Origin: Candidatus Levyibacteriota bacterium
Lineage (GTDB): Bacteria > Patescibacteriota > Microgenomatia > Levybacterales > UBA12049
Direction: 5' to 3'
Assembly (NCBI GenBank): GCA_016182235.1
Contig: JACOXT010000003.1
Coordinates: 386,209-450,208 of the forward strand
Length of the DNA: 64,000 bases
The first letter of the stretch is position 1. Every line of letters starts with the position of its first letter. The translations under genes and the position numbers were made by a program. A model generated the notes under the pieces. That model saw only the letters and a list, made by a program, of their open reading frames with translations. It did not search any database and was not told the DNA's origin. Below, piece after piece: positions 20,019 through 43,849 of the stretch.

Positions 20019-20024
20019 AAAACC

Positions 20025-24670: not shown

Positions 24671-24680
24671 TGCTTTTGAT

Positions 24681-26226: not shown

Positions 26227-26255
26227 TTGACATTATTCACTACTTAGGATAAAGT
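26227..26255 (+). promoter_or_regulatory. Sigma70-type promoter TTGACA-17-TAAAGT for the gmhA operon
   Basis: TTGACA at 26227-26232 and TAAAGT at 26250-26255. Predicted +1 at 26262, 7 nt before ATG 26269, with no Shine-Dalgarno sequence. Confidence 0.4.
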
Positions 26256-26268
26256 ATTACAGTGATTT

Positions 26269-26889
26269 ATGGCTAAACCGAATAGTCTTTATCGTAAAAA
26301 AGCAGAGACTCATTTAGTGGAGAGCATCAAGGTTAAACAGCTGACGTTAGAAAAATGCATGAGTTCAATCCTTGCGGGAGCTCAATTAATCGTAGACACT
26401 TTTTTATCCGGCGGTAAAGTTTTACTTTGTGGTAACGGTGGAAGTGCTGCAGATTGTCAGCACATGGCGACAGAATTTGTTAATGCGCTAGATAAGAATT
26501 TTTTTCGTCCCACTATGCCTGCCTTTGCCCTCACTACCGATTCGTCAGTGATGACATCTTTTTCCAATGACTTTGGTTTTGATGGAGTATTTGAGCGTCA
26601 AGTTCAAGGCTTGGGCAAACCTAACGATTTATTAATAGGTATCTCAACCAGCGGAAATTCTAAAAACGTCATTAGAGCGATCAACGCAGCTAACTCTATC
26701 AAGATGCATACCCTTGCTTTAACTGGCAATAACGGACAATTGCAAAAAATAGCCGATGTGGTAATTTCCATTCCCAGCAATAATACTCAATACATCCAGG
26801 AAGCGCACCTGACTATTGAACATATCCTTTGCGAGCTGGTTGAGCACTATCTTTTTGTGGGGATCAAGAAAAAAGACCTATGGTCATAA
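26269..26889 (+). CDS. gmhA: D-sedoheptulose 7-phosphate isomerase (phosphoheptose isomerase)
   Basis: LLCGNGGSAADCQHMATEF, FSNDFGFDGVFERQV, IGISTSGNSKNV, and QEAHLTIEHIL at the C-terminus. Confidence 0.85.
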   Translation: MAKPNSLYRKKAETHLVESIKVKQLTLEKCMSSILAGAQLIVDTFLSGGKVLLCGNGGSAADCQHMATEFVNALDKNFFRPTMPAFALTTDSSVMTSFSNDFGFDGVFERQVQGLGKPNDLLIGISTSGNSKNVIRAINAANSIKMHTLALTGNNGQLQKIADVVISIPSNNTQYIQEAHLTIEHILCELVEHYLFVGIKKKDLWS

Positions 26890-27893
26890 GCAGAACTCCT
26901 TTTCGAATTTCTTTTTTTGGTGGAGGAACAGATTATCCTGCTTGGTATCGTAAGCATGGCGGCACAGTTTTAGCAACAACAATTAACAAATACTGCTATA
27001 TTAGCGCAAGATTCCTGCCACCATTTTTTGGTTTCAAATACAGAATTGCATATTCTATAATTGAAAATTGTAAAACTCTTGATCAAATTGTTCATCCTTC
27101 TGTTCGCACTTGTATACGTTTTTTGAAGATGCCCCAAGGGTTAGAAATTCACCACGATGGTGATTTACCAGCCCGAAGCGGATTGGGATCCAGTTCTGCT
27201 TTTACGGTCGGAATGTTACATGCTCTGTATGCTTTAAGAGGTCATATGCCAAACAAACATAAACTGGCCAAAGAAAGTATTTATATTGAGCAAAAGGTTC
27301 TAAAAGAAACAGTTGGGTCGCAAGATCAGGTTTTAGCGGCATATGGAGGATTTAATCTGGTTGCTTTTCATAAGGATGGGGAAATAACGCTAAAACCAGT
27401 AACCATTTCTAAAAAACGCATAGAAGAATTGCAAGATCATTTGATGCTTTTTTATACAGGCATTGTTCGGACTGCTTCAGATGTAGCCAAGACGTTCGTT
27501 CCAAATATCCAAGAGAAAGAAAAACAACTCTTTTCCATGAATAACATGGTTGATCAAGCTTTGGATATCTTGAACAGCAGAAAGGATATTGACGATTTTG
27601 GTAAGCTTCTGCATGAAAACTGGAATCTTAAGCGTTCCTTAAGTTCTTCTGTTTCTAACTCCTTTATAGATAATATTTATCTTAGTGCTCTATCAAAAGG
27701 GGCGATCGGAGGTAAGATTATTGGTGCAGGGGGTGGAGGATTTTTGCTTCTTTTTGTCCCGCCTTCACATCAAGCCAAAGTCAAAAAGCAGTTTAATAAA
27801 CTTATTTATGTTCCTATCAAGTTTGAAAATCAAGGATCTCAAATAATTTACTATGATCAACAGGAGGATTATTCTTCGGTTAGAAAAATATGA
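26880..27893 (+). CDS. GHMP-family sugar kinase, heptose 7-phosphate kinase (HddA)-like, second copy
   Basis: SRTPFRISFFGGGTDYP, PARSGLGSSSAFTVG and GGKIIGAGGGGFLLLF. Confidence 0.85.
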   Translation: MVISRTPFRISFFGGGTDYPAWYRKHGGTVLATTINKYCYISARFLPPFFGFKYRIAYSIIENCKTLDQIVHPSVRTCIRFLKMPQGLEIHHDGDLPARSGLGSSSAFTVGMLHALYALRGHMPNKHKLAKESIYIEQKVLKETVGSQDQVLAAYGGFNLVAFHKDGEITLKPVTISKKRIEELQDHLMLFYTGIVRTASDVAKTFVPNIQEKEKQLFSMNNMVDQALDILNSRKDIDDFGKLLHENWNLKRSLSSSVSNSFIDNIYLSALSKGAIGGKIIGAGGGGFLLLFVPPSHQAKVKKQFNKLIYVPIKFENQGSQIIYYDQQEDYSSVRKI

Positions 27894-28897
27894 GTTTTTA
27901 TAAAAATAAAAAGGTATTAGTTACTGGCGGGACAGGATTAATTGGTAGACCATTAGTTGAGATGCTTGCCAAAAAAGGCGCGAAGGTAACAGCAGCTTCT
28001 TTAGATGATCCGAAAGGAATGTCTAAGGAAGTTAAATTTACTAAAGCAGATTTACGAGAATTTGGTAATTGCATGGATGTTTGTAAGAATAAAGAAATAG
28101 TTTTTCATCTGGCAGGGATTAAAGGGTCTCCGGCGTTGAATCAAAAACAACCAGCAAGTTTTTTTGTTCCAACAATTACTTTTAATTCTAATATGATGGA
28201 AGCAGCCCGCCGCCAGGGAGTTTCTAGATTCTTATACACTTCTACAGTTGGAGTGTACGCTCCGGCAGAAGTTTTCTACGAAGATGATGTTTGGAAAACT
28301 TTCCCATCTGCTAACGATCGATTTGCGGGATGGGCAAAAAGAATGGGCGAACTACAGGCAGAGGCTTATAAAATTGAGTACGGATGGGATATGATCTCAA
28401 TAGTTAGACCAGCAAATACTTATGGTCCATATGACAACTTTGATCCAAAAACTGCTATGGTTATTCCGTCACTTATAAATAGAGCGTTGTCAGGAGAAAA
28501 CCCTCTAACTGTTTGGGGAGATGGTTCGCCAATTAGGGACTTTATTTACTCCAGAGATGTGGCAGAAGGTATGATGTTGGCAGTAGAAAAGGGAATAAAT
28601 ACCCCCATCAATTTGGGAAGTGGAGTTGGAGTAACAATTAAAAAACTGGTTGAGACAATTGTTAAAAATGTTCCTAGTGGATCAATTAAAATTCGTTGGG
28701 ATAAAACGAAACCAAAAGGAGACGCGAAACGCATCATGGATATAAGAAGAGCCAAAAAATTATTAGGCTTTAAACAAAAATACTCACTAGAAGAGGGAAT
28801 TAAAGAGACAATCGAGTGGTACATAAACAATAAAGATAATTTAGATAAAAGATATAATGTGTTTTATGAAAATAAAAATAGAAGATCAAAAAATTAA
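27890..28897 (+). CDS. Extended SDR, Fcl-like NDP-sugar epimerase/reductase
   Basis: VTGGTGLIGRPL, TSTVGVYAP, FAGWAKRMGE, VRPANTYGPYDNFDP and VWGDGSPIRDFIYSRD. Paralogue of 33507-34493. ATGA overlap. Confidence 0.75.
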   Translation: MSFYKNKKVLVTGGTGLIGRPLVEMLAKKGAKVTAASLDDPKGMSKEVKFTKADLREFGNCMDVCKNKEIVFHLAGIKGSPALNQKQPASFFVPTITFNSNMMEAARRQGVSRFLYTSTVGVYAPAEVFYEDDVWKTFPSANDRFAGWAKRMGELQAEAYKIEYGWDMISIVRPANTYGPYDNFDPKTAMVIPSLINRALSGENPLTVWGDGSPIRDFIYSRDVAEGMMLAVEKGINTPINLGSGVGVTIKKLVETIVKNVPSGSIKIRWDKTKPKGDAKRIMDIRRAKKLLGFKQKYSLEEGIKETIEWYINNKDNLDKRYNVFYENKNRRSKN

Positions 28898-28927
28898 AGA
28901 ATCAATTGAAAAAGCTACTTAAAGATA

Positions 28928-28950
28928 GGTAATATAGGTTCTAGATTACC
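28928..28950. terminator. Weak hairpin between convergent operons (possible bidirectional terminator)
   Basis: GGTAAT-a-TAG-gtt-CTA-g-ATTACC: 9 bp with one mismatch and a 3-nt loop. The flanks are A/T-rich but there is no clean U-tract. Confidence 0.25.
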
Positions 28951-28975
28951 AACCACATAATAAAGACTTATCTTT

Positions 28976-29692
28976 TCATAATTTGAATTTTGCAAAAAAT
29001 TGTTGAGCGCGAGCATAGCTCTCAGGTGTTCCTATATCTATGAAATTATTATTACTTCTGAATCCATAAAATCCTTTACCTATCCAATTGGGAAATACGT
29101 CTTTCTCTAACGAGATTTCCTTGCCCACAGGAATTTCTGAAATGAAAGTTTTATTAATAAAATAAATTCCAGCATTTACGAATCCTCCTCCACTTCCAGC
29201 TTTTTTTTCTTGAAATCCAATAATACTATCATCAATTCCTAGCTTTACTTTCCCGAAACGGCTGGTATCAGAAACCGGTGAAAGAACTAAACTAACTTTG
29301 GAGTTTTTACTTAAATGGAACTGCCAAAATTTTTTAAAATCCGCCTCACAAAAAGAATCCCCATTCATAACTAACACAGTTTCTGAATTTAAGAGCGGTA
29401 AAGCATTCTTAAGGCTCCCCGCTGTGCCTAAAGGTATTTGTTCTGGTGAATATATAAGATGGAGATTTTTATATTTTCCTCCAAATGCTTTCTCAACTTG
29501 ATTGCTTAAGTATCCTGTACAGAGAATAACTTTTTTAAAATTAGCATTATTTAATTGGCTCAATAAATATTCTAAAAAGGGATGTCCTCTGACTTCTGCT
29601 AAGACTTTCGGTTTTCCTCTTACTCTTGGCTGAAGCCTAGTTCCAAAGCCCCCTGCTAAAATTACTACATCAATTTTTGAAAGATTAGACAT
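28976..29692 (-). CDS. Sugar-1-phosphate nucleotidyltransferase (HddC-like heptose-1-phosphate guanylyltransferase)
   Basis: VILAGGFGTRLQPRVRGKPKVLAEV, LVMNGDSF, NAGIYFI and FIDIGTPESY. Confidence 0.8.
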   Translation of the reverse strand: MSNLSKIDVVILAGGFGTRLQPRVRGKPKVLAEVRGHPFLEYLLSQLNNANFKKVILCTGYLSNQVEKAFGGKYKNLHLIYSPEQIPLGTAGSLKNALPLLNSETVLVMNGDSFCEADFKKFWQFHLSKNSKVSLVLSPVSDTSRFGKVKLGIDDSIIGFQEKKAGSGGGFVNAGIYFINKTFISEIPVGKEISLEKDVFPNWIGKGFYGFRSNNNFIDIGTPESYARAQQFFAKFKL

Positions 29693-30668
29693 TTCTTGAT
29701 GATTTATACCAATCTACTGTTTTTTTGATACCCATTTCTAGAGAAACTTTAGGCGTAAAGTTCAAAACCTTTTTCGCTTTGTTAATGTTAATTAGTCTGA
29801 TGGGGATCATGGTAGGCTTTGAGCTATTAAAAACAATCTTTGGAGCCTTAAAATTGTCAGCTTTTAACATAGCTTTCAGAGCCTGTCTTATTGATACCGG
29901 TTTTCCTCCGCCAATGTTGATTGGATCAAAGGTATTTATTTTTTCCATTGCCAATAATAATCCATCAACTAAATCTTCTACATAAATAAAGTCTTTAATA
30001 TCACGACCACCCCCCCAAACCTCTAAAGGATTTTGTCGCTCTACAACTTTTCTAATTAGCGCAGGAAGGACGTGTGAAGCCTCCCATTCAAAGTCATCAT
30101 AAGGACCATAAATATTTCCTGGCCTTACCACAACACAAGACATAGGATTTTTAATCGAAGTCACATACATCTCGCATAATTTTTCTGTAAATAACTTCAT
30201 CCATCCCACAGGAAAATATTTTTCATAAAAATCGTAATTAACATCGCTTTCCTTAACAGCATAATCTGTTAAAGGATAAACGGTATTACTGGAGATAAAT
30301 AGAAATTTTTTAACTTCTGCTTTATGAGATGCCTCAAGCATTAGAGTATTCATTATTACATTTGGTGTTACGTGGGAGAGGGGAGTTTTTTCAATTACAC
30401 CAGCGCCAGATGTGTTGGCAGCACACATAAATACATAGTCAATCCCTTGAACAACTTTTTTGCAATCAGATGGTTTTGTTAAATCAGATTTTATAAATTC
30501 AACTTTTGCATTTTTAATTTGAGGGGTTTTTTTGTGGATTGTCGCTCGAACGCTCGCTCTTTTCTCAAGCAGTTTTAAAATTAAATTTGTACCTACAAAA
30601 CCGGCACCTCCTGTTACCAGTACTTTTTTATTTTTAAAAAATTGATTACTTTTTTCTTCCCGTTTCAT
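29685..30668 (-). CDS. Extended SDR, NDP-sugar epimerase/reductase (Fcl-like)
   Basis: VTGGAGFVGTNL, ISSNTVYP, VRPGNIYGPYDDFE and VWGGGRDIKDFIYVED. Confidence 0.75.
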   Translation of the reverse strand: MKREEKSNQFFKNKKVLVTGGAGFVGTNLILKLLEKRASVRATIHKKTPQIKNAKVEFIKSDLTKPSDCKKVVQGIDYVFMCAANTSGAGVIEKTPLSHVTPNVIMNTLMLEASHKAEVKKFLFISSNTVYPLTDYAVKESDVNYDFYEKYFPVGWMKLFTEKLCEMYVTSIKNPMSCVVVRPGNIYGPYDDFEWEASHVLPALIRKVVERQNPLEVWGGGRDIKDFIYVEDLVDGLLLAMEKINTFDPINIGGGKPVSIRQALKAMLKADNFKAPKIVFNSSKPTMIPIRLININKAKKVLNFTPKVSLEMGIKKTVDWYKSSRNV

Positions 30669-31200
30669 CTCTTAAAGATATTATTGGATTTTTTATCGGC
30701 CACCAAATATTAAACTTTGGATCATTCCATTTTATTGTAAATTGACTTTTTGGATCGTAGTATGTAGATTGTTTGTAATGGTATATGTCATATTCAGATA
30801 ACACTAGATGTCCATTGCCATAGAGCGGTGGAATCAAAATTTGAAGTCTACTTTTGTCAGATAGTGTAAATGCTTCCCACTTACCATAATCTTTAGATTT
30901 AAGATTGTAGTTTAATATGACGATATAAAATCTTCCCAATAAGCATTGAACCAGTTTCCATGTTTTGGTATCTCCATGTATTCCCTTTAATATCCCACGA
31001 CTCCCTGTTGAAATATCGTCCTCAACAAAATGCAATCTTAAAGCTTCCTTTTGATAAATAGTCCCTTTTAGATTCTTGGCAATTTCGTGAGAGTAATTTT
31101 TTTCATTAAATGTTTCAACATATTCTCCGCGAAAATCTTCAAAAGGTTCGGGTTTAATAAGTAAAACTCCTTCTAGTTTTGTTTTAGATATTTTAAGCAT
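30646..31200 (-). CDS. RmlC-like cupin, NDP-4-keto-6-deoxy-sugar 3,5-epimerase family
   Basis: LEGVLLIKPEPFEDFRGEYVETFN, SRGILKGIHG and KQSTYYDP. Confidence 0.8.
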   Translation of the reverse strand: MLKISKTKLEGVLLIKPEPFEDFRGEYVETFNEKNYSHEIAKNLKGTIYQKEALRLHFVEDDISTGSRGILKGIHGDTKTWKLVQCLLGRFYIVILNYNLKSKDYGKWEAFTLSDKSRLQILIPPLYGNGHLVLSEYDIYHYKQSTYYDPKSQFTIKWNDPKFNIWWPIKNPIISLRDETGRKK

Positions 31201-31211
31201 TTTTTAAAGAC

Positions 31212-31985
31212 TTATTCAACTACAAAATAGGATGTACGAGAAGTAAATTTATGTCTCTTGAGTCTTATATTATTTAATCCGAAGACTTCATCCAAAGCTA
31301 TAGTCTCTCCCGGAGAATCAGGATCATTTAGTTCATCAAAACTCAAAATACTCCCCTTTACTAAGTATGGCTTAATTGCCTGCAGACATTTTTTCGTAGG
31401 TTTATAAAGATCAAAATCAAAAAAAGCCAAAGCCACAATTGTTTCAGGATGTTTTTTGAAATATTTAATAATTTCTGAATTAGCATCACCTTTTATTAGT
31501 TCAAATTTTTTGATATGGGAGAGGGGATTTTCTTGCTCATGGTATTCCATAATTTTTGTTAAGTATTCGAGGTAATCCTTGGTTAAAGTTAAATTGCCCT
31601 TTAGCATTATCTCTGAATCTCCATCTTTTGGACTAATTTCCGGAAAGCCAGTAAATGTATCAAATCCCACAATTTTTCTGTGTCTATTAAACGGATCGTA
31701 AATCCCTCGAAGGGATGAGAAAAGCGCAATGTTTTGTCCCCACCTAGTACCAAACTCAAGGACAATTCCTGGGATGTCCACAATCTGTTTAAAAATGTGG
31801 TCCATAAAAAGTATACGTGATAAGTTTTTAGAATTTAAAAAAAGACCTAAATTAGACATTATTTGATCATCGGGAATAGGGCAATTTTTAAAAAGCTCAA
31901 CAAGCGTTTGTCTGATTTTTGCTTCATGACCACTGCTATATGCTTTAATCTTAATTAAATCTTTTTTTGCCATTTTATTCCTCAA
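31212..31985 (-). CDS. TylF/MycF-like class I SAM-dependent (O-)methyltransferase
   Basis: The pattern LEFGTRWGQN...VGFDTFTGFPE...ALAFFDFDLYKPTKKCLQAIKPYLVKGSILSFDE matches the TylF layout (ETGVWRG...DSF.GLP...LDGDLYEST...L..GG..i.DD). Confidence 0.55.
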   Translation of the reverse strand: MRNKMAKKDLIKIKAYSSGHEAKIRQTLVELFKNCPIPDDQIMSNLGLFLNSKNLSRILFMDHIFKQIVDIPGIVLEFGTRWGQNIALFSSLRGIYDPFNRHRKIVGFDTFTGFPEISPKDGDSEIMLKGNLTLTKDYLEYLTKIMEYHEQENPLSHIKKFELIKGDANSEIIKYFKKHPETIVALAFFDFDLYKPTKKCLQAIKPYLVKGSILSFDELNDPDSPGETIALDEVFGLNNIRLKRHKFTSRTSYFVVE

Positions 31986-33096
31986 TTATCGAAGGAACAG
32001 GTTTTTTGCCATTGAAAGCTATAACCCATGCCCAATACCGTATTCTACCACCTAATAATTCATATTCAAAGTTATTCTCTTTTTTTTGTATTGCTCTTAC
32101 CCTAACCGGTTTTAAAAAATCTCCTTTATGTATATCCTCCGAAAGCATTTTTGGACTCGGAAAGAAATCTAACTTATTTTCTAAAGCTTCCTCAACTGTT
32201 TTATATGCAGCATGGTTATCAATAGTTGTAACCTTAATTTTTGCGGTATCTATATAAATTAGTTTTGTAGCAAATGTTTTTACAAGAAGGTGAACGTCTT
32301 TTTTTTCCATGACAAACTCAGTAGATTTTGCATTTTCCTCTAGGTGGGTTATGTTTGTTGTTGCAGGAATTGCTACAACTGAGGGATGAAATATTAAAAA
32401 GTTTAAAATTATTTGGGAAACAGTCTTATTATATTTTTTAGACAGATTTGAAAATATCTTTGAATTCTTTTGTGCTTTTAAAATATTACCTGAATTTAGG
32501 GGGGTATAAGCAATATTTGTAATTTTATTTCTTTCGCAATATGGAAGTAGATCGGTCTCTGCCGATCGCTCGAGTAAATTATATTCTGTTTGCAAAGAGA
32601 CAATAGGTAGCTTAGATACTTTTTGGATATTTTTTAGAAGGCTCAGAGAAAAATTGCACACGCCAATATATTTGACCTTTCCTGATTTTACTAATGTTTC
32701 TAACGCCTTAAGCGTTTCCTCAAAAGGAATAACCGGATTTGGCCAGTGGATCTGATAGAGATCAATATAATCTGTTTGCAATCTTTTTAAACTGCCTTCG
32801 CAAGCTTTTAAAACTTCTTTGTAGCTTGAATGTTCTGGTAAAAACTTAGTGGCGATAAAAACATTATTTCTATTGTTTTTAAACGCTTTTCCAACTAGTT
32901 CTTCCGCATGTCCTTGAAAATATACTTCTGCAGTGTCAATAAAATTGACTCCTAAGCCTAATGCTTTTTGTAATACATAAATTAGCTGACTATCTCTTTT
33001 TCTGTCTATTTCTTTAAAACCAGTTCCAGTCCCAAGTCCTATTGAAGAAATTATTGTTTTGGTATTTCCAAGATTTTTAAATTTTAGATCATTCAA
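31975..33096 (-). CDS. Aldo/keto reductase fused to a C-terminal ParB/sulfiredoxin-like domain
   Basis: AKR region: GLGTG...NFIDTAEVY, YIDLYQIHWP, YIGVCNFS and LQTEYNLLER. The last ~95 aa (LIYIDTAKIKV...FLKPVRVRAI...EYELLGGRIRYWAWVIAFNGKKPVPSII) follow the ParB-N pattern (I.V...l.PI.V...Y.ii.G.RR..A....G...vP.iv). Confidence 0.6.
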   Translation of the reverse strand: MNDLKFKNLGNTKTIISSIGLGTGTGFKEIDRKRDSQLIYVLQKALGLGVNFIDTAEVYFQGHAEELVGKAFKNNRNNVFIATKFLPEHSSYKEVLKACEGSLKRLQTDYIDLYQIHWPNPVIPFEETLKALETLVKSGKVKYIGVCNFSLSLLKNIQKVSKLPIVSLQTEYNLLERSAETDLLPYCERNKITNIAYTPLNSGNILKAQKNSKIFSNLSKKYNKTVSQIILNFLIFHPSVVAIPATTNITHLEENAKSTEFVMEKKDVHLLVKTFATKLIYIDTAKIKVTTIDNHAAYKTVEEALENKLDFFPSPKMLSEDIHKGDFLKPVRVRAIQKKENNFEYELLGGRIRYWAWVIAFNGKKPVPSIIEE

Positions 33097-33526
33097 CGCT
33101 TATATCCCATCCTTCCAAGCCATCTGTTTCAACATTTGTTCTCTTTTTGCTTGGATCTTTATCTCCAATCTCTTCTAAAATCTTATTTTTCATGGAATTG
33201 CGTATTCCATTAAGTTGGTGGGCGTGTTTTAAAAGTTTTAAATAATTTTCCCCATCCTCTTTTTGCATTCTGTCTTTATTCTCCCAGATGTAAATGTTAA
33301 GTTGAGCTATAATTATAATTATCCTGATAAGCTTAGAATTTATTTTAACTTTCTTTTCATCAATAATAAGATCAATATCGTGACATATCTTTTTTAACTC
33401 TTTGGCATACGATATTTTTTTGTCATGAAATTTTATTTCCTTGATCTGGTTAATTGTTAGACTATCAATTAAATCAGCAAGTGTAGGCAGATATTCACGT
33501 TGTTTATTAGTTTCTGTTTTTTTCAT
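33089..33526 (-). CDS. Small helical hypothetical protein (possibly DUF4254-like)
   Basis: 145 aa, soluble and helix-rich (LADLIDSLTINQIK...AQLNIYIWENKDRMQ). It overlaps both neighbours inside the sugar operon. Confidence 0.3.
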   Translation of the reverse strand: MKKTETNKQREYLPTLADLIDSLTINQIKEIKFHDKKISYAKELKKICHDIDLIIDEKKVKINSKLIRIIIIIAQLNIYIWENKDRMQKEDGENYLKLLKHAHQLNGIRNSMKNKILEEIGDKDPSKKRTNVETDGLEGWDISVE

Positions 33527-34493
33527 ACCAGTCTGATTTTAGATACCATTCTACGGTTTTGTTAATGCCATCCGAAAGAGAGGTCTTTGCCTTAAAGCCA
33601 AGTAAGTTTTCTGCTCTTTTCATAGATAGTATTCTAACAGGATCACCAGATGGTTTGTTTATGTCCCACTCAAGTTTTGGTTTAGTAGGTACAGTATTAG
33701 CAATAATTTGGGCAGTCTTTTTTATTGTTACTCCAATGCCTGCTCCTAGATTGATAGGTACACATGGTGGAGCCAACTCCTGGGCCAGAAGCATTCCCGA
33801 GACAACATCCGTAACAAAGATGAAATCCCTTATAGCACTACCATCCCCCCAAATCCTTATAGGATTTTCACCACTTACCATCCGAGCAATTAGAGCTGGA
33901 ATCACTTGGGCAGTCTTGGGATTAAAATTATCATACGGTCCATACACGTTTGAGGGGCGGACTATTTTGGGAGCTTGCCAATTATACTCAAGTAGATAAC
34001 TTTCTGCCTGTACCTCGCCAATCCTTTTTGCAAGTCCCGGAATTCTGTCATTTTGTTTTGGTTGCCCATCCCAAACACTGTTTTCAGTTTTAGGTTTATT
34101 AGACTCCGGATATGCACAGATGCTACTGACAAAAAGAAAACCCTTTATATTATTTTTAAATGCGGAATCCATTAAATTAGTCTGAAAGCGAAGCATTGGT
34201 ACTAAAAAACTGGCAGTTTTTGTCAGGCCAATACCAACCGATCCTTTAATCCCAACAAGATTAAAAACTAACTCTTGATCTTTGGTTACCTTCAAACAAT
34301 TATCAAAATCTGTCAGATCTGTTTGGATAAATTTAACTTTTTTACTAAATAGCTTATTTGCATATTTCCTTGACTCCAAAGACGCAATGGTGACATTGGA
34401 ACCTAATTCCAAAAGTTTATTTACCAAACAAACTCCTATCATTCCAGTACCTCCTGCAACCAAAACTTTTTTTCTTTTATAAAATTTTTTCAT
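33507..34493 (-). CDS. Extended SDR, Fcl-like NDP-sugar epimerase/reductase
   Basis: VAGGTGMIGVCL, VSSICAYP, IPGLAKRIGE, VRPSNVYGPYDNFNP and IWGDGSAIRDFIFVTD. Confidence 0.75.
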   Translation of the reverse strand: MKKFYKRKKVLVAGGTGMIGVCLVNKLLELGSNVTIASLESRKYANKLFSKKVKFIQTDLTDFDNCLKVTKDQELVFNLVGIKGSVGIGLTKTASFLVPMLRFQTNLMDSAFKNNIKGFLFVSSICAYPESNKPKTENSVWDGQPKQNDRIPGLAKRIGEVQAESYLLEYNWQAPKIVRPSNVYGPYDNFNPKTAQVIPALIARMVSGENPIRIWGDGSAIRDFIFVTDVVSGMLLAQELAPPCVPINLGAGIGVTIKKTAQIIANTVPTKPKLEWDINKPSGDPVRILSMKRAENLLGFKAKTSLSDGINKTVEWYLKSDWYEKNRN

Positions 34494-35432
34494 TTAAAGA
34501 GGTTTCCAAACTAAATAAGTATAACCATCGTGATAGAAAGAACCAAAAGTTCTTCTTATATCGATAATTTTAATTTTCTTTTTCGCCTCAAGTTTTTTTA
34601 AATATGACAAGAATCCTCTTAGGTAATTTCTTTGTTCCGAATATTTCATGGCCAAATAATCTAATAAATTTTCCTGGTCATAAATTTCATAAAGTGTTTC
34701 TACATTTATACAAATCATGGGTTTATTTTTTAGAAGGTAGTTTATAAAGGGCTCAAAATTTTTTCCTAATTGTTCAAGAGTGCCGATGGTTAGAACTCCT
34801 GAGTCTTTATCAAGGTGGTATTCTTCATCTGGCTTAAAAAGGTTAAATCTTTTTGCAGAAATATTGATATTAAGCTTTTCCCTTAATACATTAATGATAT
34901 CCGCAGTTGATTCTGCCCAATCCAATCCAATCAGTTTCATTTTAGGAAAAATTTCTGACGCCGCCACCAAATTTAACCCAGTTCCTGCGCCAAACTCATA
35001 AAGCGTATTTGCTTTCTTGTAGTATTTAGTAAAAAGATAATATCTCATTACAGTTACAAAATCATTTTCAAAAGAGTCATTTTCAGGCTTGATAAAATCA
35101 CTTTGAAATCTAATATATTCACCTTTCTTTACAAACTTGGGGATAAGCTGACTTAAATTATACCTACTTCGTCTAAATTCCGCTAAATTTTCTTTCCAAC
35201 CATTTTCCCAGTCAGCAAGTCTATGAGGACCTGCAATTTTTAAGTTCTTTGAATCTAGGGTTTTAATTATCTTTAAAATTGCCTCATTATATTCTTTGCC
35301 TTCGACGATTTGATATTTAAAATTTGCTTTTTTTATTGCCTGTTTTGCAAGCAAAGGCAAATTATCTTCTTTTGCATTAAAAATTTTAGCAAATAATTTA
35401 GAGCTTAAATTATGTATATTATTTTTCTTCAT
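34494..35432 (-). CDS. Class I SAM-dependent methyltransferase
   Basis: YEFGAGTGLNLVAA motif I, LIGLDWAES and VLTIGTLEQL. Confidence 0.7.
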   Translation of the reverse strand: MKKNNIHNLSSKLFAKIFNAKEDNLPLLAKQAIKKANFKYQIVEGKEYNEAILKIIKTLDSKNLKIAGPHRLADWENGWKENLAEFRRSRYNLSQLIPKFVKKGEYIRFQSDFIKPENDSFENDFVTVMRYYLFTKYYKKANTLYEFGAGTGLNLVAASEIFPKMKLIGLDWAESTADIINVLREKLNINISAKRFNLFKPDEEYHLDKDSGVLTIGTLEQLGKNFEPFINYLLKNKPMICINVETLYEIYDQENLLDYLAMKYSEQRNYLRGFLSYLKKLEAKKKIKIIDIRRTFGSFYHDGYTYLVWKPL

Positions 35433-36394
35433 CTGCTTCTTAAAAATTTGTCAATTTTTCTAATTACTTGATCTGACGCTATGCCAATTTGTTTATGCAT
35501 ATAATCTCTATCTCCGTAAATAAAGCAGTGTCCGTCTGGCAGTCCGATCCTTAGGAAATCAGTCTTAATAGAGTGATCTGCTAAAAAGTCTGACACTATT
35601 GTTCCTAGGCCTCCATACGAAAGATGTTCTTCGAGCGTAAATACAACCTCAAATGGTTCTATAAGTTTTTTTAAAATTTTTTCGTTTAGGGGTTTAAGTT
35701 GATAAATATCGATTACCGCAATATCTAAATCACTTTTTTCTTTTAAATTTTTTGCGATGTCAATAGCTTTATGAGTTATTGTACCTGTTGTGATAAAACA
35801 GAACTTTTTACCAGGCTTGAGCATTGCTAGACCATCAGGAATACTATCTATTCTTGATGAGTAGAGGTCTGGAAAATTACCTTTTTCAAAACGAATATAA
35901 GTCAACTGAGGTTTAGAATAAGTAAGGTGAGGAAATACTGCAAGATTGAAAAAATCTGTAGCATTTAAGATTCTCATATGGGGTATTGCCCTCATAATCG
36001 CAATATCTTGATTGCTATGATGAGTTGGTCCATCTGCTCCATAAGTAAAACCTGGCCCAACTCCTGCTATGGTTACAGGAAGATTCATAACGCTTAAGTC
36101 GACTTTAATTTGTTCATAGCAACGGAGTGTTATAAAGGTAGAGATTGCATGCACAAAAACTTTTTTTCCTGAAAGTGCCAATCCTCCCGCGACACTTATC
36201 ATGTTTTGCTCTGCAACGCCGGCATTAAATATCTGTTTGGGTAAACTTGAGTAAAATTTTTGAAAAGTTTGGGCTCCTTGATCAGCATGAAGAAGAATTA
36301 CATCGTGATCATGTAAGGCTATTTGGAAAAGCTCTTCAAAAAAGGCATCTCTCATGTCTGTATAGGCAGTTGTGGATTTTAAAAATTTTTTCAT
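35429..36394 (-). CDS. Transketolase, C-terminal (pyrimidine-binding + C-terminal domain) subunit
   Basis: MRDAFFEEL, GVAEQNMISVAGGLALSGKKVF and GADGPTHHSNQDIAIMRAIP. ATG 36394 lies in a TGATG overlap with the N-terminal subunit's stop; the track start at 36460 adds a 22-aa extension overlapping the upstream gene. Confidence 0.85.
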   Translation of the reverse strand: MKKFLKSTTAYTDMRDAFFEELFQIALHDHDVILLHADQGAQTFQKFYSSLPKQIFNAGVAEQNMISVAGGLALSGKKVFVHAISTFITLRCYEQIKVDLSVMNLPVTIAGVGPGFTYGADGPTHHSNQDIAIMRAIPHMRILNATDFFNLAVFPHLTYSKPQLTYIRFEKGNFPDLYSSRIDSIPDGLAMLKPGKKFCFITTGTITHKAIDIAKNLKEKSDLDIAVIDIYQLKPLNEKILKKLIEPFEVVFTLEEHLSYGGLGTIVSDFLADHSIKTDFLRIGLPDGHCFIYGDRDYMHKQIGIASDQVIRKIDKFLRSR

Positions 36395-37212
36395 CAAGTT
36401 AACCCTAAGTCCTTTTTGGCTAATTGTATTTGTTCTCCTTTGGGGACTCCATGGTGCCAATGATAATCATTTTCCATAAAAGAAATCCCTTTGCCTTTTA
36501 CAGTATTAGCAACAATAATAGAGGGTCTGGAATTTTTCATTTGTTTAAGTTTCTTAAATGCACTTATTATTTGTTTGAAATTATGTCCATCTATTTGAAT
36601 TGTGTTCCAGCCAAATGATTTCCATTTCATATGCATGGAGGAATTACCTGTAAAATCCTTTGTAAAGGAAGTCGCGGCGACTTTATTATTGTCAACAATA
36701 GCTATTAAATTAGATAGTTTTTGTTGTGCAGCAAAGGATGCTGCCTCCCAAACAGATCCCTCACTGCATTCGCCGTCTCCCAATATTACTAAAGTCAAGA
36801 AGTTTTTTTCATCTAACTTTGCAGACAAAGCAAGTCCACAACCAAGTCCAAGTCCATGTCCTAAAGAACCAGAAGAGACCTCAACACCTGGGATAAAATG
36901 ATCAGGATGACCACCTAAAATAGTTCCATTTTGTCCATATTTATCTAACTCTGTCTTAGGAAAGTAACCTTTGTCGGCCAGTACGCAATAAAGTGCCAGG
37001 CATGCATGGCCTTTACTGAAGATAATTCTGTCTCTTTCTGGATCTTTCTTTTTTTTATGAGACAGATTAAATATTCCGGAGTAATAGATAGCAACCAGTA
37101 TATCTGTTATCGAGAGCGCACCGCCTAAGTGACCTTTCTTAGCCTTAATTTGCATTTGAAAGGATTTTTTCCTTACCCATTTAGCTTTTTGCTTTAATGA
37201 ATTAATATCCAT
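36394..37212 (-). CDS. Transketolase, N-terminal (ThDP/PP-binding) subunit
   Basis: GHLGGALSITDIL, GHPD, GSLGHGLGLGCGLA, and the ThDP motif ILGDGECSEGSVWEAASFAAQQKLSNLIAIVDNN. Confidence 0.85.
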   Translation of the reverse strand: MDINSLKQKAKWVRKKSFQMQIKAKKGHLGGALSITDILVAIYYSGIFNLSHKKKKDPERDRIIFSKGHACLALYCVLADKGYFPKTELDKYGQNGTILGGHPDHFIPGVEVSSGSLGHGLGLGCGLALSAKLDEKNFLTLVILGDGECSEGSVWEAASFAAQQKLSNLIAIVDNNKVAATSFTKDFTGNSSMHMKWKSFGWNTIQIDGHNFKQIISAFKKLKQMKNSRPSIIVANTVKGKGISFMENDYHWHHGVPKGEQIQLAKKDLGLT

Positions 37213-38276
37213 CAGAAAGGTCCTCGAAATTTATTTTCATAACTATAAAAAGTTTCTTTTGACAAATCTGTTCTTGTTAATTTAAGTTTTTTTTCAACAG
37301 ATCTTATTAATTTGATTGCGTCAGTATAAAATTCATCTTCAAGCGGCCTTGTGCAGGGGCAGTGGGTGGGCGCAAAACCCAATCGCAGAACCTTAGATTT
37401 CAACTTGTTAGATAACTTTTCGTAAATTCTACTTTCTACTTCAGCTGAAAATCCGCAAAAAGTCCAATCATAATCTACAATAATACAATGTTTGGTTTTC
37501 TCAACAGATTTTATGATAATATCTTCATCTAGAGGAAAAATAGAACGGGGATCAATCACCTCAACACTTATACCTCTTTTTCCCAAAATTTGTGCAGCTT
37601 TTACCGCCTCAACTGTAGAATAAGAAGTAGCAACAATAGTAATATCTTTTCCTCTTTTGAGGATTTGTCCGATGCCAAGTGGCGTAGGTATGGGTTCAAT
37701 AGGTACTTCATCTTCAACGTCATAAAGCATCCGATGTTCTAAAACAACAACTGGATTATTATTTCTGATGGCCGCTATCAGTAACCCTTTAGCGTCAGCT
37801 GGAGTTGTTGGCATAACTACTTTTAGACCTGGAATATGAGCGAAAAATGATTGTAAGCTTTTACTATGCTGATATGATTGGCCCCAACCCTTTCCGATAA
37901 TAGCCCTTATGACCAGAGGAACTTGTATTTTTCCGTCGGTTCCGTAGTGATAACTTGCAACCATATTTACGAGTTGGTTAATTGCTAAAAGCAGAAAATC
38001 AACTCTCATGTGGACGTTTATAGGTCGTAAACCAGAAATTGCTGCTCCTAGACCGAAACCTAACAATGCTTCTTCAGAAAGAGGCGTTGAGAAAACACGT
38101 TTTGGACCAAATTTTTCAAGAAGGCCCTTTGTTGAACCAAATATTCTTTTGTGGTCCGCAACATCAATCCCATAGATAAAAATCGAATTATCCCGTTCCA
38201 TTTCTTGATGGAGAGCCTGATTAATTGCAGTTCGGTAAGAAATTTTTTTTTTAGCCTGTTTAATTTGTTTTTTCAT
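37212..38276 (-). CDS. 2-oxoacid dehydrogenase E1 component beta subunit-like (PDH/acetoin-DH E1-beta family)
   Basis: ISYRTAINQALHQEMERDNSIFIYGIDV, STPLSEEALLGFGLGAAISGLRP and PVVVLEH. Confidence 0.8.
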   Translation of the reverse strand: MKKQIKQAKKKISYRTAINQALHQEMERDNSIFIYGIDVADHKRIFGSTKGLLEKFGPKRVFSTPLSEEALLGFGLGAAISGLRPINVHMRVDFLLLAINQLVNMVASYHYGTDGKIQVPLVIRAIIGKGWGQSYQHSKSLQSFFAHIPGLKVVMPTTPADAKGLLIAAIRNNNPVVVLEHRMLYDVEDEVPIEPIPTPLGIGQILKRGKDITIVATSYSTVEAVKAAQILGKRGISVEVIDPRSIFPLDEDIIIKSVEKTKHCIIVDYDWTFCGFSAEVESRIYEKLSNKLKSKVLRLGFAPTHCPCTRPLEDEFYTDAIKLIRSVEKKLKLTRTDLSKETFYSYENKFRGPF

Positions 38277-39234
38277 AAAATGTGTTTTTCAGAAGCTCTG
38301 AAGAATCAGGAAATGATGCAGACTTTGCATTCTGAAAACTCTCAGTTACCTGTTTGCTAATACCCTCCTCAAGTTTTATAATTTCCATATCGCTCACCTT
38401 TAACTCTTTTAATTTGTTTCGGAGTAGCTTAATCGGATCTTTTTTTTGCCAATTCATAAACTCCAATTTGTCCCGATAGCCTGTATTAAAATCCTCGTGA
38501 ATGCCAACATGTTCTAAATAGCGATAATATTTTAGATGTAGAAAAGCTGGTTGATGTTTTTTTTGGATTGAAGATACAGCCCGTGAAGTTAGTTTATAAA
38601 TTTGCTCTGCGTCAGTAGTGTCAGTTTCAAAAACAGAACAATTATACTGTTTAATTATATTGACTAAGTTTTTGTAGCCACGTCGGACTTGCCAAGGCGT
38701 ATGTACTGCATACCTATTATCTTCACAAACAAAAAGTACAGGGAGCCCTTTTAGACAAGCAATATTTAGACTTTCCCAAAAAACACCTTCATCAACTGCT
38801 CCATCGCCAAAGAATACAGCCGTTATGTCTTTTTTTTTAAGGTATACGTTGGCAAACGCGTTACCAACTGCCAAGGGTATTGTGCTCCCAACGACCGCAG
38901 AGATCCCAAGGAGTCCATGAGCTGGTGATAAAAGATGCATTGAACCTCCTTTTCCTTTTAAAACACCTGTAACTTTTCCGTACATTTCGGCAAAAAATTT
39001 ATCCGACTCTTGTGTAATCGCAAGATACAAACCATGACTTCTATAAGTCCCAAAGGTTCTTGAATTCTTAGGAAGCGCAGTGCAAACACCGGAGACTATT
39101 CCTTCCTCTCCCATAGACATGTGCATTGGTGTTTTCATTTCGTTATTGTCATAGTGTTTAATAATTAACTTCTCAGTAGCTCTTATCAAGTAAGCTTTTT
39201 TAAAAAGGTTTAAAATCAATTTTTTTCTATTCAT
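38260..39234 (-). CDS. 2-oxoacid dehydrogenase E1 component alpha subunit-like (ThDP-binding)
   Basis: MHMSMGEEGIVSG, YRSHG, GKGGSMH, and the ThDP motif FFGDGAVDEGVFWESLNIACLKGLPVLFVCEDN. Confidence 0.8.
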   Translation of the reverse strand: MNRKKLILNLFKKAYLIRATEKLIIKHYDNNEMKTPMHMSMGEEGIVSGVCTALPKNSRTFGTYRSHGLYLAITQESDKFFAEMYGKVTGVLKGKGGSMHLLSPAHGLLGISAVVGSTIPLAVGNAFANVYLKKKDITAVFFGDGAVDEGVFWESLNIACLKGLPVLFVCEDNRYAVHTPWQVRRGYKNLVNIIKQYNCSVFETDTTDAEQIYKLTSRAVSSIQKKHQPAFLHLKYYRYLEHVGIHEDFNTGYRDKLEFMNWQKKDPIKLLRNKLKELKVSDMEIIKLEEGISKQVTESFQNAKSASFPDSSELLKNTFYEKTN

Positions 39235-40216
39235 AACTTTTCTTATAATAATCTCTCCAGTAATTCAGCATATCTTTTAAAGTTTGGTCAAATTTTATTT
39301 TTGGCTTCCAGCCGGTTTGTTGAACAAATTTCTCAACTGAGGGTATCTGTAGTGTAACATCAGATGGGCGTAAGCGTTTGGGATCTACCATTACTTTTAT
39401 ATCGTTTTTTTTGGAAAAGCTGATAAGTTTATTGAGCATTTCGCCAATAGTCATCGTTTCTACGCCTCCTATATTGTAAACTTCTCCCGGCGTGCATTTA
39501 CTAACAAGCAGCCAATAAGCTCTTACGGCATCCCTCACATCCATAAAAGTTCGGACACTTTTTAAATTTCCTACCATTACAATAGGTTTTTGGTGACCAG
39601 CTTCTATTGCAGCAATCTGTTTCGCAAAATTAGAAGGAGCGAAAACTTCTCCGCGTCTTGGGCCTTCATGAGTAAACATCCTTGTTCTAATTGTTTTTAT
39701 TTCCCAAGATAAAAAGTATTGAAGAGCTAACATATCTTCTCCAACTTTAGAGACAGCGTAAGGCGAGGCTGGTCTGAAAGAATTTGTTTCTTTAATCGGG
39801 ATTTCATTCTTTTTGACCTGTCCATAAACTTCAGAGGAACTACAAATATGAATAATAGGATTATATTTTGTTTTTAATTTAAGAGTTTTAATGCACTCAA
39901 GTAAATTGGCAGTTCCGATTACATTTGTCTGAAGAGTAGATATTGGGGATACAAAACTAAAATCAACATAAGATTGCGCGGCAAGGTGAAAAATCACATC
40001 AGGTTTTACTTCTTTGAGAATTTTTTCTAAAGAGCCATAATCTTCTAAATCTCCATAACAAAAATTAATATGACCTTGAATTTTAGAAATATTATTTTTA
40101 GGTGATCTCCACCTAACAAGTCCATAAATTTTTATACTTTTATTAACTTTAAGAATATATTCCGCAAGATGGCTTCCAACAAAGCCAGTAATACCAGTAA
40201 TTAGAGCTTTCTCCAT
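39227..40216 (-). CDS. GDP-mannose (or GDP-heptose) 4,6-dehydratase-family SDR
   Basis: ITGITGFVGSHL, CSSSEVYG (Ser-x-Glu dehydratase signature), SPYAVSKVGED (YxxxK), FTHEGPRRGEVF and GNLKSVRTFMDVRD. Confidence 0.75.
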   Translation of the reverse strand: MEKALITGITGFVGSHLAEYILKVNKSIKIYGLVRWRSPKNNISKIQGHINFCYGDLEDYGSLEKILKEVKPDVIFHLAAQSYVDFSFVSPISTLQTNVIGTANLLECIKTLKLKTKYNPIIHICSSSEVYGQVKKNEIPIKETNSFRPASPYAVSKVGEDMLALQYFLSWEIKTIRTRMFTHEGPRRGEVFAPSNFAKQIAAIEAGHQKPIVMVGNLKSVRTFMDVRDAVRAYWLLVSKCTPGEVYNIGGVETMTIGEMLNKLISFSKKNDIKVMVDPKRLRPSDVTLQIPSVEKFVQQTGWKPKIKFDQTLKDMLNYWRDYYKKSYE

Positions 40217-40225
40217 TATTCAGAG

Positions 40226-40234
40226 ATTATATCA
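40226..40234 (-). promoter_or_regulatory. Extended -10 promoter TGATATAAT for the 13-gene dehydratase-to-nucleotidyltransferase operon
   Basis: The minus strand reads TGATATAAT. Predicted +1 at 40219, 3 nt before ATG 40216. Confidence 0.4.
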
Positions 40235-40291
40235 AACAAAGACTCCTATAGTCTAGGACCTAAGATATATAGTTGAGTATGCAGATTTTAA

Positions 40292-40903: not shown

Positions 40904-40930
40904 TTTATTATTTAATTATTAGATTTTGAT

Positions 40931-41974: not shown

Positions 41975-41998
41975 AGTAATTTGGTAGATTGTTATAGA

Positions 41999-42007
41999 AT
42001 TATATCA
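41999..42007 (-). promoter_or_regulatory. Extended -10 promoter TGATATAAT for the GT10/acetyltransferase operon
   Basis: The minus strand reads TGATATAAT. Predicted +1 is near 41992, giving an 18-nt leader before ATG 41974 with no Shine-Dalgarno sequence. Confidence 0.35.
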
Positions 42008-42030
42008 CGAGGTATAGCTACAAAATTACT

Positions 42031-42059
42031 TTGACAGCAGAATTGAATTCGGGTATCAT
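42031..42059 (+). promoter_or_regulatory. Sigma70-type promoter TTGACA-17-TATCAT; +1 coincides with GTG 42066 (leaderless)
   Basis: TTGACA at 42031-42036, a 17-nt spacer, and TATCAT at 42054-42059. Confidence 0.45.
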
Positions 42060-42065
42060 GTTGAG

Positions 42066-43848: not shown

Positions 43849-43849
43849 T

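Follow-up and report, generated by a model that had tools for sequence, protein, structure and literature searches.

Enzymes of the αKADH2 class, which are built from E1α and E1β subunits and depend on thiamine diphosphate (ThDP), install two-carbon branches on keto sugars in the pathways to aldgamycin, kibdelomycin, paulomycin, avilamycin and trioxacarcin (PMC12247030). For miharamycin and amipurimycin, the proposed role of split-gene transketolases is to hand a hydroxyacetyl unit on to a keto sugar; according to the same review, the 13 predicted cases are all from Streptomycetes and still await characterisation in vitro (PMC12247030). In paulomycose, the acetyl branch at C-4' is reduced by the aldo-keto reductase Pau7 (PMC4753412), while the branched sugars of lipopolysaccharides are made with a different ThDP-dependent family, the YerE type (PMC9306805). 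Here we describe a 64-kb stretch of DNA (the window; positions 386,209 to 450,208 of contig JACOXT010000003.1) from a Candidatus Levyibacteriota bacterium, a member of the candidate phyla radiation (CPR). Between positions 26227 and 40234 the window carries a block of genes whose predicted products combine GDP-heptose synthesis with further enzymes: E1α and E1β subunits that stand alone, a transketolase split over two genes, an aldo-keto reductase and two methyltransferases (Table 1). The first-pass annotation took this block for a horizontally acquired, self-contained nucleotide-sugar cassette. We consider it reasonably likely that the block is instead the native, conserved core of a Microgenomates surface-glycan locus, which would make and tailor a GDP-heptose with branches installed by ThDP-dependent enzymes. 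We did not find such a cassette described in the literature, where the key survey of sugar-branching ThDP-dependent enzymes is represented here by the 2025 review that cites it. Nor did literature searches yield anything specific on heptose glycans of CPR bacteria (Patescibacteria), or on transketolase in heptose or capsule clusters.

The gene content originally assigned to the block (GmhA, HddA, HddC, ThDP-dependent and tailoring enzymes) was right, and its description as a nucleotide-sugar cassette is borne out. The GmhA, HddA and HddC members of the set for GDP-D-glycero-α-D-manno-heptose are all present by their best NCBIfam matches, and GmhB is not. By homology, GmhA would isomerise sedoheptulose-7-phosphate, HddA would phosphorylate the product of GmhA, and HddC would complete GDP-D-glycero-α-D-manno-heptose, from which the 4,6-dehydratase would form GDP-6-deoxy-4-keto-heptose. 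The dehydratase scores 307 bits against the C. jejuni entry 7US5, ~150 bits against GDP-mannose 4,6-dehydratases and up to ~130 bits against dTDP-glucose dehydratases, and on these scores it appears nearer to the characterised GDP-heptose 4,6-dehydratase than to either of the other types. Taken together, the genes are predicted to cover every step of the GDP-heptose route up to GDP-6-deoxy-4-keto-heptose except that of GmhB.

This missing step has left a trace. In relatives of the window an intact HAD phosphatase gene follows hddC, and the same place in the window holds a relic of gmhB, recognised by tblastn, by translation and by nucleotide comparison. The start of the relic, ATGAAAAGATAA, overlaps the hddC stop (ATGA) and is followed by two codons and a stop. 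Its last ~16 codons, YYVVGNLEPILPIFK up to the terminal stop, align with the C-terminal end of the intact HAD phosphatases found in two relatives, a Microgenomates metagenome-assembled genome (MAG; locus L056) and a groundwater metagenome (L058), in both protein and nucleotide sequence. The L056 GmhB matches window positions 28977-28918 by tblastn, and the deletion amounts to ~150 codons. A Pfam scan of all 60 open reading frames (ORFs) of at least 100 aa in the 64-kb window found no HAD-domain ORF. The heptose pathway encoded in the window is therefore without its own phosphatase, a required activity that would have to be supplied from elsewhere in the genome. The block is, for this reason among others, not self-contained as had been proposed: gmhB is present only as a relic, the likely transferase of the GT10 family lies outside the block, and gene order is conserved beyond it to 45.7 kb.

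The E1α gene lies directly downstream of the dehydratase gene, which it overlaps by 8 nt, and is followed by that for E1β. No PDB match to E1α was found at the strict threshold of 1e-40, and the ORF scan detected neither an E2 or E3 gene nor a lipoyl or E3 domain anywhere in the 64-kb window. E1α/β thus has the features that characterise αKADH2-type enzymes: no E2/E3 partners, an intact ThDP/Mg motif, a position within a sugar-nucleotide operon and an adjoining dehydratase of the keto-sugar-forming kind. By analogy with the antibiotic pathways, we predict that it adds a pyruvate-derived two-carbon unit to the keto sugar. The stand-alone enzyme would decarboxylate pyruvate and place the two-carbon unit on the keto carbon, so that a C-acetyl branch results. 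On the same analogy, the aldo-keto reductase is a candidate reductase of this acyl branch and would convert the acetyl group to a 1-hydroxyethyl group.

The split transketolase may add or remodel a second two-carbon (hydroxyacetyl) unit. Like its proposed antibiotic counterparts, it is encoded by two genes within a sugar-tailoring cluster, and its ThDP-binding residues are intact. Its C-terminal part has as best PDB match 6YAJ, the C chain of the Carboxydothermus hydrogenoformans split transketolase, followed by DXS entries. The 67-nt overlap originally called for the two transketolase genes is an artefact of a start called too early, at a TTG (36460) that falls 67 nt inside the N-part gene. 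The true start of the C part is likely the ATG at 36394, giving a protein of 321 aa, because its orthologues measure 315-316 aa and this ATG overlaps the N-part stop by a single base.

Further tailoring would be carried out by the cupin epimerase, the three GDP-fucose-synthase-like reductases and the two methyltransferases, which could together set the stereochemistry and O-methylation of the product. Among the top PDB matches of the cupin are the GDP-4-keto-heptose 3,5-/3-epimerases of C. jejuni (7M14, 8DB5, 8DCO and 8DCL), which it matches about as well as it does any RmlC. Neither methyltransferase gave a Pfam match above cut-off. The one at 31212-31985 is recognised by its likeness to CalS11, and the 312-aa protein at 34494-35432 by homologues that carry PF13649, one of which is named a class I S-adenosylmethionine (SAM)-dependent methyltransferase. 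Two homologues of the 312-aa protein (P0335 and P0352, of 504 and 445 aa) are fused to a Transketolase_C domain, which hints at a functional link between this methyltransferase and the split transketolase; the fusions could also be gene-calling run-ons. A conserved 145-aa protein at 33089-33526 matches no Pfam or NCBIfam family and no PDB entry, and its single-sequence AlphaFold2 model is all-helical with a pLDDT of 52, too poor for use. The adjacent glycosyltransferase belongs to GT10, a family that uses GDP-sugar donors. It is likely the transferase for the GDP-sugar product and would move the finished sugar to a cell-surface glycan.

The product of the cassette is, then, probably a two-carbon-branched 6-deoxyheptose. 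A fuller form, in which the GDP-6-deoxyheptose is O-methylated and bears one or two two-carbon branches put on by ThDP-dependent enzymes (an acetyl or hydroxyethyl group by E1α/β, hydroxyacetyl by the split transketolase), we put forward tentatively. A role for the ThDP-dependent enzymes in phosphonate biosynthesis was also considered and rejected: no phosphoenolpyruvate mutase is present, and in type the enzymes belong with E1 and transketolase, not with phosphonopyruvate decarboxylase.

Comparison with related genomes places the block among the Microgenomates. Three of its proteins (E1α, HddA-like kinase, 312-aa methyltransferase) have matches of 100% identity in a Ca. Levybacteria MAG, and the next-best matches of all three, at 72-85% identity, come from Daviesbacteria, Levybacteria and other Microgenomates (77-85% for the closest HddA homologues, from the same groups). 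Four lineages have the 13 minus-strand genes in the same order, with amino-acid identities of 57-88%. They are represented by loci L001/L008/L056 (a Microgenomates MAG), L002/L003/L010 (Daviesbacteria-type), L005/L006/L058 (from a groundwater metagenome) and L009 (Levybacteria RIFCSPLOWO2_02_FULL_37_18). The convergent gmhA-hddA-SDR operon (SDR, short-chain dehydrogenase/reductase) is kept at 59-86% identity in L056 and L058, where its SDR has orthologues that are 83-84% identical. In L001 the aldo-keto reductase gene is duplicated.

Synteny does not stop at the right edge of the block. The GT10, SDR, GT2 and asparagine-synthase-like (AsnB-like) genes at 40931-45718 are found in relatives at 60-74% identity. 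The GT10 gene stands immediately upstream of the dehydratase gene in L001, L002 and L005 (60-66% identity), and the SDR, GT2 and amidotransferase genes keep their order in L001/L008 and L005 (64-74%). Syntenic genes outside the block lie on the same relative contigs as the inside genes, with identities of 50-74% outside and 57-88% inside. The hexapeptide-repeat O-acetyltransferase gene at 40292-40903, by comparison, is absent between GT10 and dehydratase in L001, L002, L003, L005 and L006, and is an insertion that sets this genome apart. To the left, the module at 9808-12544 recurs in L056 (at 2613-5311 there, 50-61% identity), where far less DNA separates it from gmhA. What varies is therefore the stretch from 12.5 to 26.2 kb, and not the block. 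Both comparisons that had been suggested as checks on acquisition point the same way, with the closest homologues of the inside genes sampled (E1α, HddA and the 312-aa methyltransferase) all from Microgenomates, and the cassette present in Microgenomates relatives together with its right flank to 45.7 kb.

The E1α subfamily extends well beyond this class. One scan of species-representative genomes with E1α returned 48 loci, all of them in MAGs; neighbourhood counts were taken over the 42 loci with at least 45% E1α identity. Identities of 77-83% are found in Microgenomates relatives, and of 47-61% in Saccharibacteria, Yanofskybacteria, Peribacteria, Omnitrophota, Pirellulales and others, as well as in Desulfobacter, Desulfobacterium, Nitrospira, Solibacteraceae, Chloroflexota and Verrucomicrobiota. 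E1β is encoded directly downstream of E1α in 38 of the 42 loci. A homologue of the heptose dehydratase lies within 10 kb of E1α in 29 and directly upstream of it in 18. Other neighbours are an RmlC-like epimerase (26/42), HddA (22/42), the split transketolase (19/42) and the 312-aa methyltransferase (18/42). The dehydratase and E1α/β form the stable core, to which transketolase, methyltransferases and aldo-keto reductase are accessories.

The proposal of foreign origin had rested on base composition. GC content is 34.7% in the block, 33.0% in the left flank, 31.1% in the right flank, 32.1% in all outside DNA and 32.6% in the window as a whole. The eleven GC values quoted for single 60-nt lines were reproduced to within ~6 points, most of them exactly; as evidence of an island they do not hold, since a single line has a standard deviation of 7 GC points and the lines were a selected sample. 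The block stands out as a +2.7-point bump rather than a step, with 1-kb bins of 31.1-37.4% inside overlapped by outside maxima of 36.6% (19-20 kb), 36.2% (1-2 kb) and 35.5% (23-24 kb). Least-squares segmentation with two breakpoints selects not 26-40 kb but a low-GC segment at 40001-54000 (30.0% versus 33.4%). That segment contains the GT10 gene (26.1% GC), two ORFs at 46922-48623 (25-26%) and other transferase and membrane genes.

GC at third codon positions (GC3) shows no step, averaging 0.270 per gene in the block and 0.258 outside (Mann-Whitney p=0.51), or 0.262 in the block when gmhA is left out. The excess is confined to the first and second codon positions, where block and outside genes differ (p=0.001 and p=0.008). 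Mean GC is 0.346 for the block and 0.338 for the 12 soluble sugar-modifying enzymes encoded elsewhere in the window (p=0.5), against 0.313 for its glycosyltransferase, membrane and unknown genes. The tetranucleotide shift is slight (correlation to the whole window 0.835 inside, 0.859 outside), with the most deviant intervals at 44-53 kb. Six related loci carry the same offset, their cassettes lying 1.7 to 2.7 GC points above their flanks while absolute GC follows the host (cassette 32.5-36.3%, flanks 30.2-34.1%). Because the offset recurs in these relatives and tracks host GC, it is a property of the genes and not a sign of recent arrival: the GC excess reflects the amino-acid composition of soluble enzymes set beside AT-rich membrane and glycosyltransferase neighbours.

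These results bear directly on whether the block is a recent, self-contained nucleotide-sugar island that drew its GC from a foreign donor. Some observations do favour an island and weigh against our reading of a native core. Mean GC in the block exceeds that of the rest of the window by 2.7 points; gmhA, with a GC3 of 0.39, is the sole gene in which GC3 is raised; and the synonymous codon usage of the block (G=76.5, 41 degrees of freedom) is the most deviant of all sliding 16-gene blocks tested, although genes 1-16 come near to it at G=71.0. Host DNA is represented in these comparisons by the 64 kb of the window alone. The E1α subfamily is scattered patchily over many phyla, and a complete Levybacteria genome (locus L060; CP066685.1, 1-6000 and 9395-21008) has a different version of the cassette, rearranged and more divergent, in the order gmhA, hddA, dehydratase, E1α, E1β, aminotransferase and SDRs, with an E1α only 40% identical to that of the window. 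Modules have evidently been shuffled between sugar pathways in it, a case of cassette-level variation within the class. From this divergent version and the scatter of E1α, exchange of such cassettes over evolutionary time is likely. For the block itself, a recent acquisition is nonetheless highly improbable. GC3 is flat, soluble sugar enzymes elsewhere in the window equal the block in GC, and the offset follows the host in six relatives; the nearest homologues are from Microgenomates and lie on contigs shared with syntenic outside genes of similar identity; synteny runs past the proposed right edge; and gmhB is missing. Marks of mobility are likewise lacking. The window has no tRNA gene, no integrase or transposase domain appeared in the ORF scan, and no meaningful direct or inverted repeats flank the block, only short chance matches and the paralogous SDR stretches at 28024-28128 and 34240-34344; island borders defined by repeats or a tRNA insertion site were rejected on this account. 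The first-pass annotation had itself named the absence of a compositional step and a shared affiliation with neighbouring genes as grounds for abandoning horizontal acquisition, and because both were found, recent acquisition of the block is not supported by the sequence comparisons.

Other alternatives accept the block as native and differ over its chemistry. Rather than branching a sugar, the ThDP-dependent enzymes might serve central metabolism and the supply of precursors, the transketolase making sedoheptulose-7-phosphate and E1α/β forming a component of a pyruvate or acetoin dehydrogenase, with an unbranched, methylated 6-deoxyheptose like that of C. jejuni as the product. Sedoheptulose-7-phosphate is an established product of transketolase and is the substrate of GmhA, so the transketolase could merely supply it. 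The N part, moreover, has a genuine split transketolase as a close match (6YAK, E=3e-62). In an alignment with 6YAJ judged by eye, the phosphate-binding Arg and His look retained, Ser is replaced by Gly and a second Arg by Lys; with the positions mapped from E. coli TktA, roughly three of the four (Arg, His, and Lys for Arg) look kept. In small CPR genomes one transketolase might do both jobs, and the dehydratase, epimerase and reductases would suffice for a 6-deoxyheptose of the C. jejuni type (see PMC10680097). We think this explanation unlikely when it is set against the arrangement of the genes. E1α/β is without an E2 or E3 partner in 64 kb and comes directly after the dehydratase, a pairing that recurs in Desulfobacter, Nitrospira, Pirellulales and others; bacteria with large genomes would be expected to own separate central-metabolic enzymes. 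The transketolase genes stand between E1β and a methyltransferase whose homologues are fused to Transketolase_C, and in L060 the split transketolase is found at a distance from gmhA, in another sugar operon that also encodes a C-methyltransferase and an aminotransferase. The block has, besides, an aldo-keto reductase of the type that acts on acetyl branches. The block could, alternatively, be a native mosaic of at least two adjacent, independent sugar pathways, for example one to an unbranched 6-deoxyheptose and another to a branched sugar on a different scaffold. It holds three paralogous reductase-like SDRs and an epimerase; transketolase, 312-aa methyltransferase, aldo-keto reductase and CalS11-like methyltransferase each occur in only 10-19 of the 42 E1α loci, a pattern of modular gain and loss; and the aldo-keto reductase is duplicated in L001. 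A mosaic is improbable all the same, as the block encodes only one nucleotidyltransferase and one 4,6-dehydratase, and its 13 minus-strand genes overlap or abut as a single operon of fixed order across Microgenomates lineages. A native core that branches a GDP-heptose remains the reading that we prefer, and three further points count against it. The branch may sit at C3 or C4, but three SDRs resembling 4-reductases fit awkwardly with a tertiary alcohol at C4, and the cassette may for that reason make more than one sugar; enzyme assignments rest on sequence comparison throughout; and the NCBIfam matches all fall below equivalog cut-offs, which makes orthology probable and not certain.

The arrangement of the block as two convergent operons, of three plus-strand and 13 minus-strand genes, was confirmed by gene strands and tight packing. 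Genes within the operons overlap by 1-23 nt, apart from one abutting pair and one 11-nt gap. Both promoters identified in the first-pass annotation are present as written. Promoter-like sites as such are not above chance in the 19 kb from 24 to 43 kb (64, versus 72.8±8.3 in shuffles). We nevertheless uphold both calls because they are conserved in register in relatives, and this conservation, over four lineages in each case, indicates that the two predicted promoters are real. The gmhA promoter, TTGAC(A/T)-17-TAA(A/G)(G/T)T, is kept 13-14 nt 5' of the ATG in the window, L056, L058 and L060 (alignment A2), with TTGAC and TAA..T invariant; in the window, the gmhA ATG comes 13 nt past the -10 element. 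The dehydratase promoter TG(A/G)TATAAT is invariant at 6-9 nt 5' of the ATG in the window, L001, L005 and L002 (alignment A1) while the surrounding bases vary, and in the window it ends 9 nt short of the dehydratase ATG. Since the promoters sit so close to the start codons, mRNAs from both are predicted to be nearly leaderless; there is no evident Shine-Dalgarno sequence ahead of gmhA or the dehydratase gene. As boundaries of the block the promoters fared less well than as motifs. In relatives the second lies within the 31-41-nt gap that follows the GT10 gene, and the site at 40226-40234 is therefore an internal promoter of a longer row of genes on the same strand, with synteny continuing past it, rather than an edge. 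The best promoter-like match in 24-43 kb is a different one, TTGACA-17-TATCAT at 42031-42059 on the plus strand (11/12), located in the divergent gap opposite GT10 and 7 nt before the SDR gene that starts at 42066.

The two operons meet in a 78-nt gap. A weak hairpin had been noted there at 28928-50, but this sequence lies in the gmhB relic, is what remains of the 3' end of that gene, has neither a G+C-rich stem nor a T-run, and was not called by a terminator scan. Taken whole, the gap folds with z-scores of -0.35 and +0.15; a 39-nt core reaches -1.84 (-6.4 kcal/mol). An intrinsic terminator at the junction was rejected, as it was uncalled and no more stable than shuffled sequences.

Table 1. 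Coordinates of the cassette and of related features in the window; functions are predicted
Feature	Position	Strand	Basis or remark
First HddA/GmhA pair	190-1854	+	HddA 190-1167, GmhA 1168-1854; 40% and 28% identical to in-block pair
Cupin, two-domain sugar C-methyltransferase (Methyltransf_13/14) and SDR	9808-12544	+	Pfam
Promoter of gmhA-hddA-SDR operon, TTGACA-17-TAAAGT	26227-26255	+	Sequence as written; conserved
gmhA, sedoheptulose-7-phosphate isomerase, second copy	26269-26889	+	SIS_2; best NCBIfam phosphoheptose isomerase/GmhA; 28% identical to 1168-1854
hddA-like D-glycero-D-manno-heptose-7-phosphate kinase	26880-27893	+	GHMP kinase domains; best NCBIfam HddA; 40% identical to 190-1167
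GDP-fucose-synthase-like SDR (sugar 4-reductase or epimerase-reductase)	27890-28897	+	Pfam Epimerase; best NCBIfam GDP-L-fucose synthase; paralogue of 33507-34493
gmhB (heptose-1,7-bisphosphate phosphatase) relic	28915-28979	-	tblastn, translation, nucleotide comparison
hddC-like sugar-1-phosphate guanylyltransferase	28976-29692	-	NTP_transferase; best NCBIfam mannose-1-P guanylyltransferase, HddC
SDR like GDP-mannose 3,5-epimerase/GDP-fucose synthase	29685-30668	-	Pfam, NCBIfam, PDB
Cupin (RmlC-type) epimerase of 4-keto sugar nucleotide	30646-31200	-	PF00908
CalS11-like nucleotide-sugar O-methyltransferase	31212-31985	-	PDB 4GF5/3TOS (CalS11, TDP-rhamnose 3'-O-methyltransferase), E=6e-65
Aldo-keto reductase with ~100-aa C-terminal extension	31975-33096	-	PF00248, E=3e-65
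Conserved 145-aa protein, unknown function	33089-33526	-	59-79% identity in relatives
GDP-fucose-synthase-like SDR	33507-34493	-	Pfam, NCBIfam, PDB
Divergent class I SAM-dependent methyltransferase, 312 aa	34494-35432	-	Homologues with PF13649, one named class I SAM methyltransferase
Split transketolase, C-terminal part (pyrimidine-binding + C)	35429-36394	-	PF02779, PF02780
Split transketolase, N-terminal (ThDP-binding) part	36394-37212	-	PF00456; PDB 6YAK, E=3e-62; GDG...NN motif intact
E1β, stand-alone 2-oxoacid dehydrogenase-type ThDP enzyme (αKADH2 class)	37212-38276	-	PF02779, PF02780; NCBIfam pyruvate dehydrogenase E1β
E1α (αKADH2 class)	38260-39234	-	PF00676; GDG...EDNRY motif intact
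GDP-D-glycero-D-manno-heptose 4,6-dehydratase	39227-40216	-	Best PDB 7US5 (deposited under that name), E=1.6e-90
Extended -10 promoter of dehydratase operon, TGATATAAT	40226-40234	-	Sequence as written; conserved
Hexapeptide-repeat O-acetyltransferase	40292-40903	-	Pfam, NCBIfam; insertion relative to relatives
GT10 (fucosyltransferase-family) glycosyltransferase	40931-41974	-	PF00852; outside noted block, syntenic with cassette
SDR, GT2 and asparagine-synthase-like amidotransferase (AsnB-like), divergent operon	42066-45718	+	Pfam

The surroundings of the cassette are of a piece with it. Glycan-biosynthesis DNA occupies the entire 64-kb window in the Pfam scan, with GT2, GT4 and GT10 transferases, six PMT_2/GT-C membrane transferases, many methyltransferases, a flippase-like protein and about a dozen SDR-type sugar-nucleotide enzymes. 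The proposed island is therefore one segment within a far bigger glycan region. The window also contains a first HddA/GmhA pair, and from their divergence the two sets appear to be old paralogues that probably feed different heptose products. The module at 9808-12544 amounts to a second branched-sugar module, whose cupin is weak in Pfam and has an L056 counterpart that carries FdtA. An ORF of 1116 aa at 60045-63395 on the plus strand has no Pfam match (E<=1e-5), and the ORFs at 20004-21521, 24654-26201, 46922-48010, 48613-49596 and 50948-52672 are without family assignment.

We know of no determined structure of a CPR surface glycan, and CPR bacteria are uncultivated. Against this background, the cassette predicts a carbon-branched heptose made by types of ThDP-dependent enzyme hitherto tied to actinomycete antibiotics. 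Each kind of pathway is itself known; what is new here is that the tailoring of a GDP-heptose is combined with sugar branching by ThDP-dependent enzymes, and that this occurs where it was not expected. Levybacteria, Daviesbacteria and related groups share the cassette at amino-acid identities of 57-88%, a strong conservation, and its core recurs in many phyla. If the prediction is true, the product would belong to a class of monosaccharide so far undescribed in any organism, and sugar branching of the E1 and transketolase types would be widespread in the surface glycans of CPR bacteria and of many uncultivated phyla. It would also enlarge the repertoire of bacterial sugars and of ketone-accepting ThDP-dependent carboligases, enzymes in demand as biocatalysts for tertiary alcohols. 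The analysis offers, in addition, a useful warning: where enzyme genes differ by a few GC points from genes for membrane proteins or glycosyltransferases, the difference is no evidence of foreign origin.

Set beside known systems, the locus shares with genomic islands only a contiguous multi-gene block of slightly different mean GC. Unlike them, it shows no deviation at third codon positions, has no mobility genes, is not bordered by a tRNA gene or repeats, and occurs in sister lineages along with its flanks. With the GDP-6-deoxyheptose pathway of the C. jejuni capsule it has enzyme families in common (GmhA/HddA/HddC, the dehydratase represented by 7US5, cupin epimerases and reductases). It differs in that ThDP-dependent enzymes (E1α/β and the split transketolase) are interposed mid-pathway, along with the aldo-keto reductase and both methyltransferases, that GmhB is deleted, that the host is a CPR bacterium and that the neighbour is a GT10 gene rather than a capsule export system. 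The YerE-type pathways to yersiniose, erwiniose and caryophyllose match the chemistry and setting that we propose, namely a ThDP-dependent addition of an acyl unit to a nucleotide-activated 4-keto sugar that is bound for a surface glycan, with the branch reduced afterwards (PMC9306805). YerE, however, is acetolactate-synthase-like and belongs to another superfamily, there being no TPP_enzyme_N/M/C protein in the block, and its scaffold is a CDP-3,6-dideoxyhexose whereas a GDP-heptose is predicted here. An N/C-split transketolase within a sugar-tailoring operon is found in the miharamycin and amipurimycin clusters too; that of the cassette co-occurs with E1α/β, in non-actinomycetes, and takes its proposed role from context. 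The αKADH2 enzymes of antibiotic biosynthesis, among them KbDH-α/β of kibdelomycin, finally present the same two-gene E1α/β arrangement without E2/E3, beside an enzyme that produces a keto-sugar nucleotide, and the paulomycin cluster adds an aldo-keto reductase (Pau7), as does the cassette. The likeness drawn here is one of gene context, and where the known αKADH2 clusters serve actinomycete secondary metabolism, this one would serve a surface-glycan locus, on a predicted GDP-heptose scaffold, in CPR bacteria and many uncultivated phyla.

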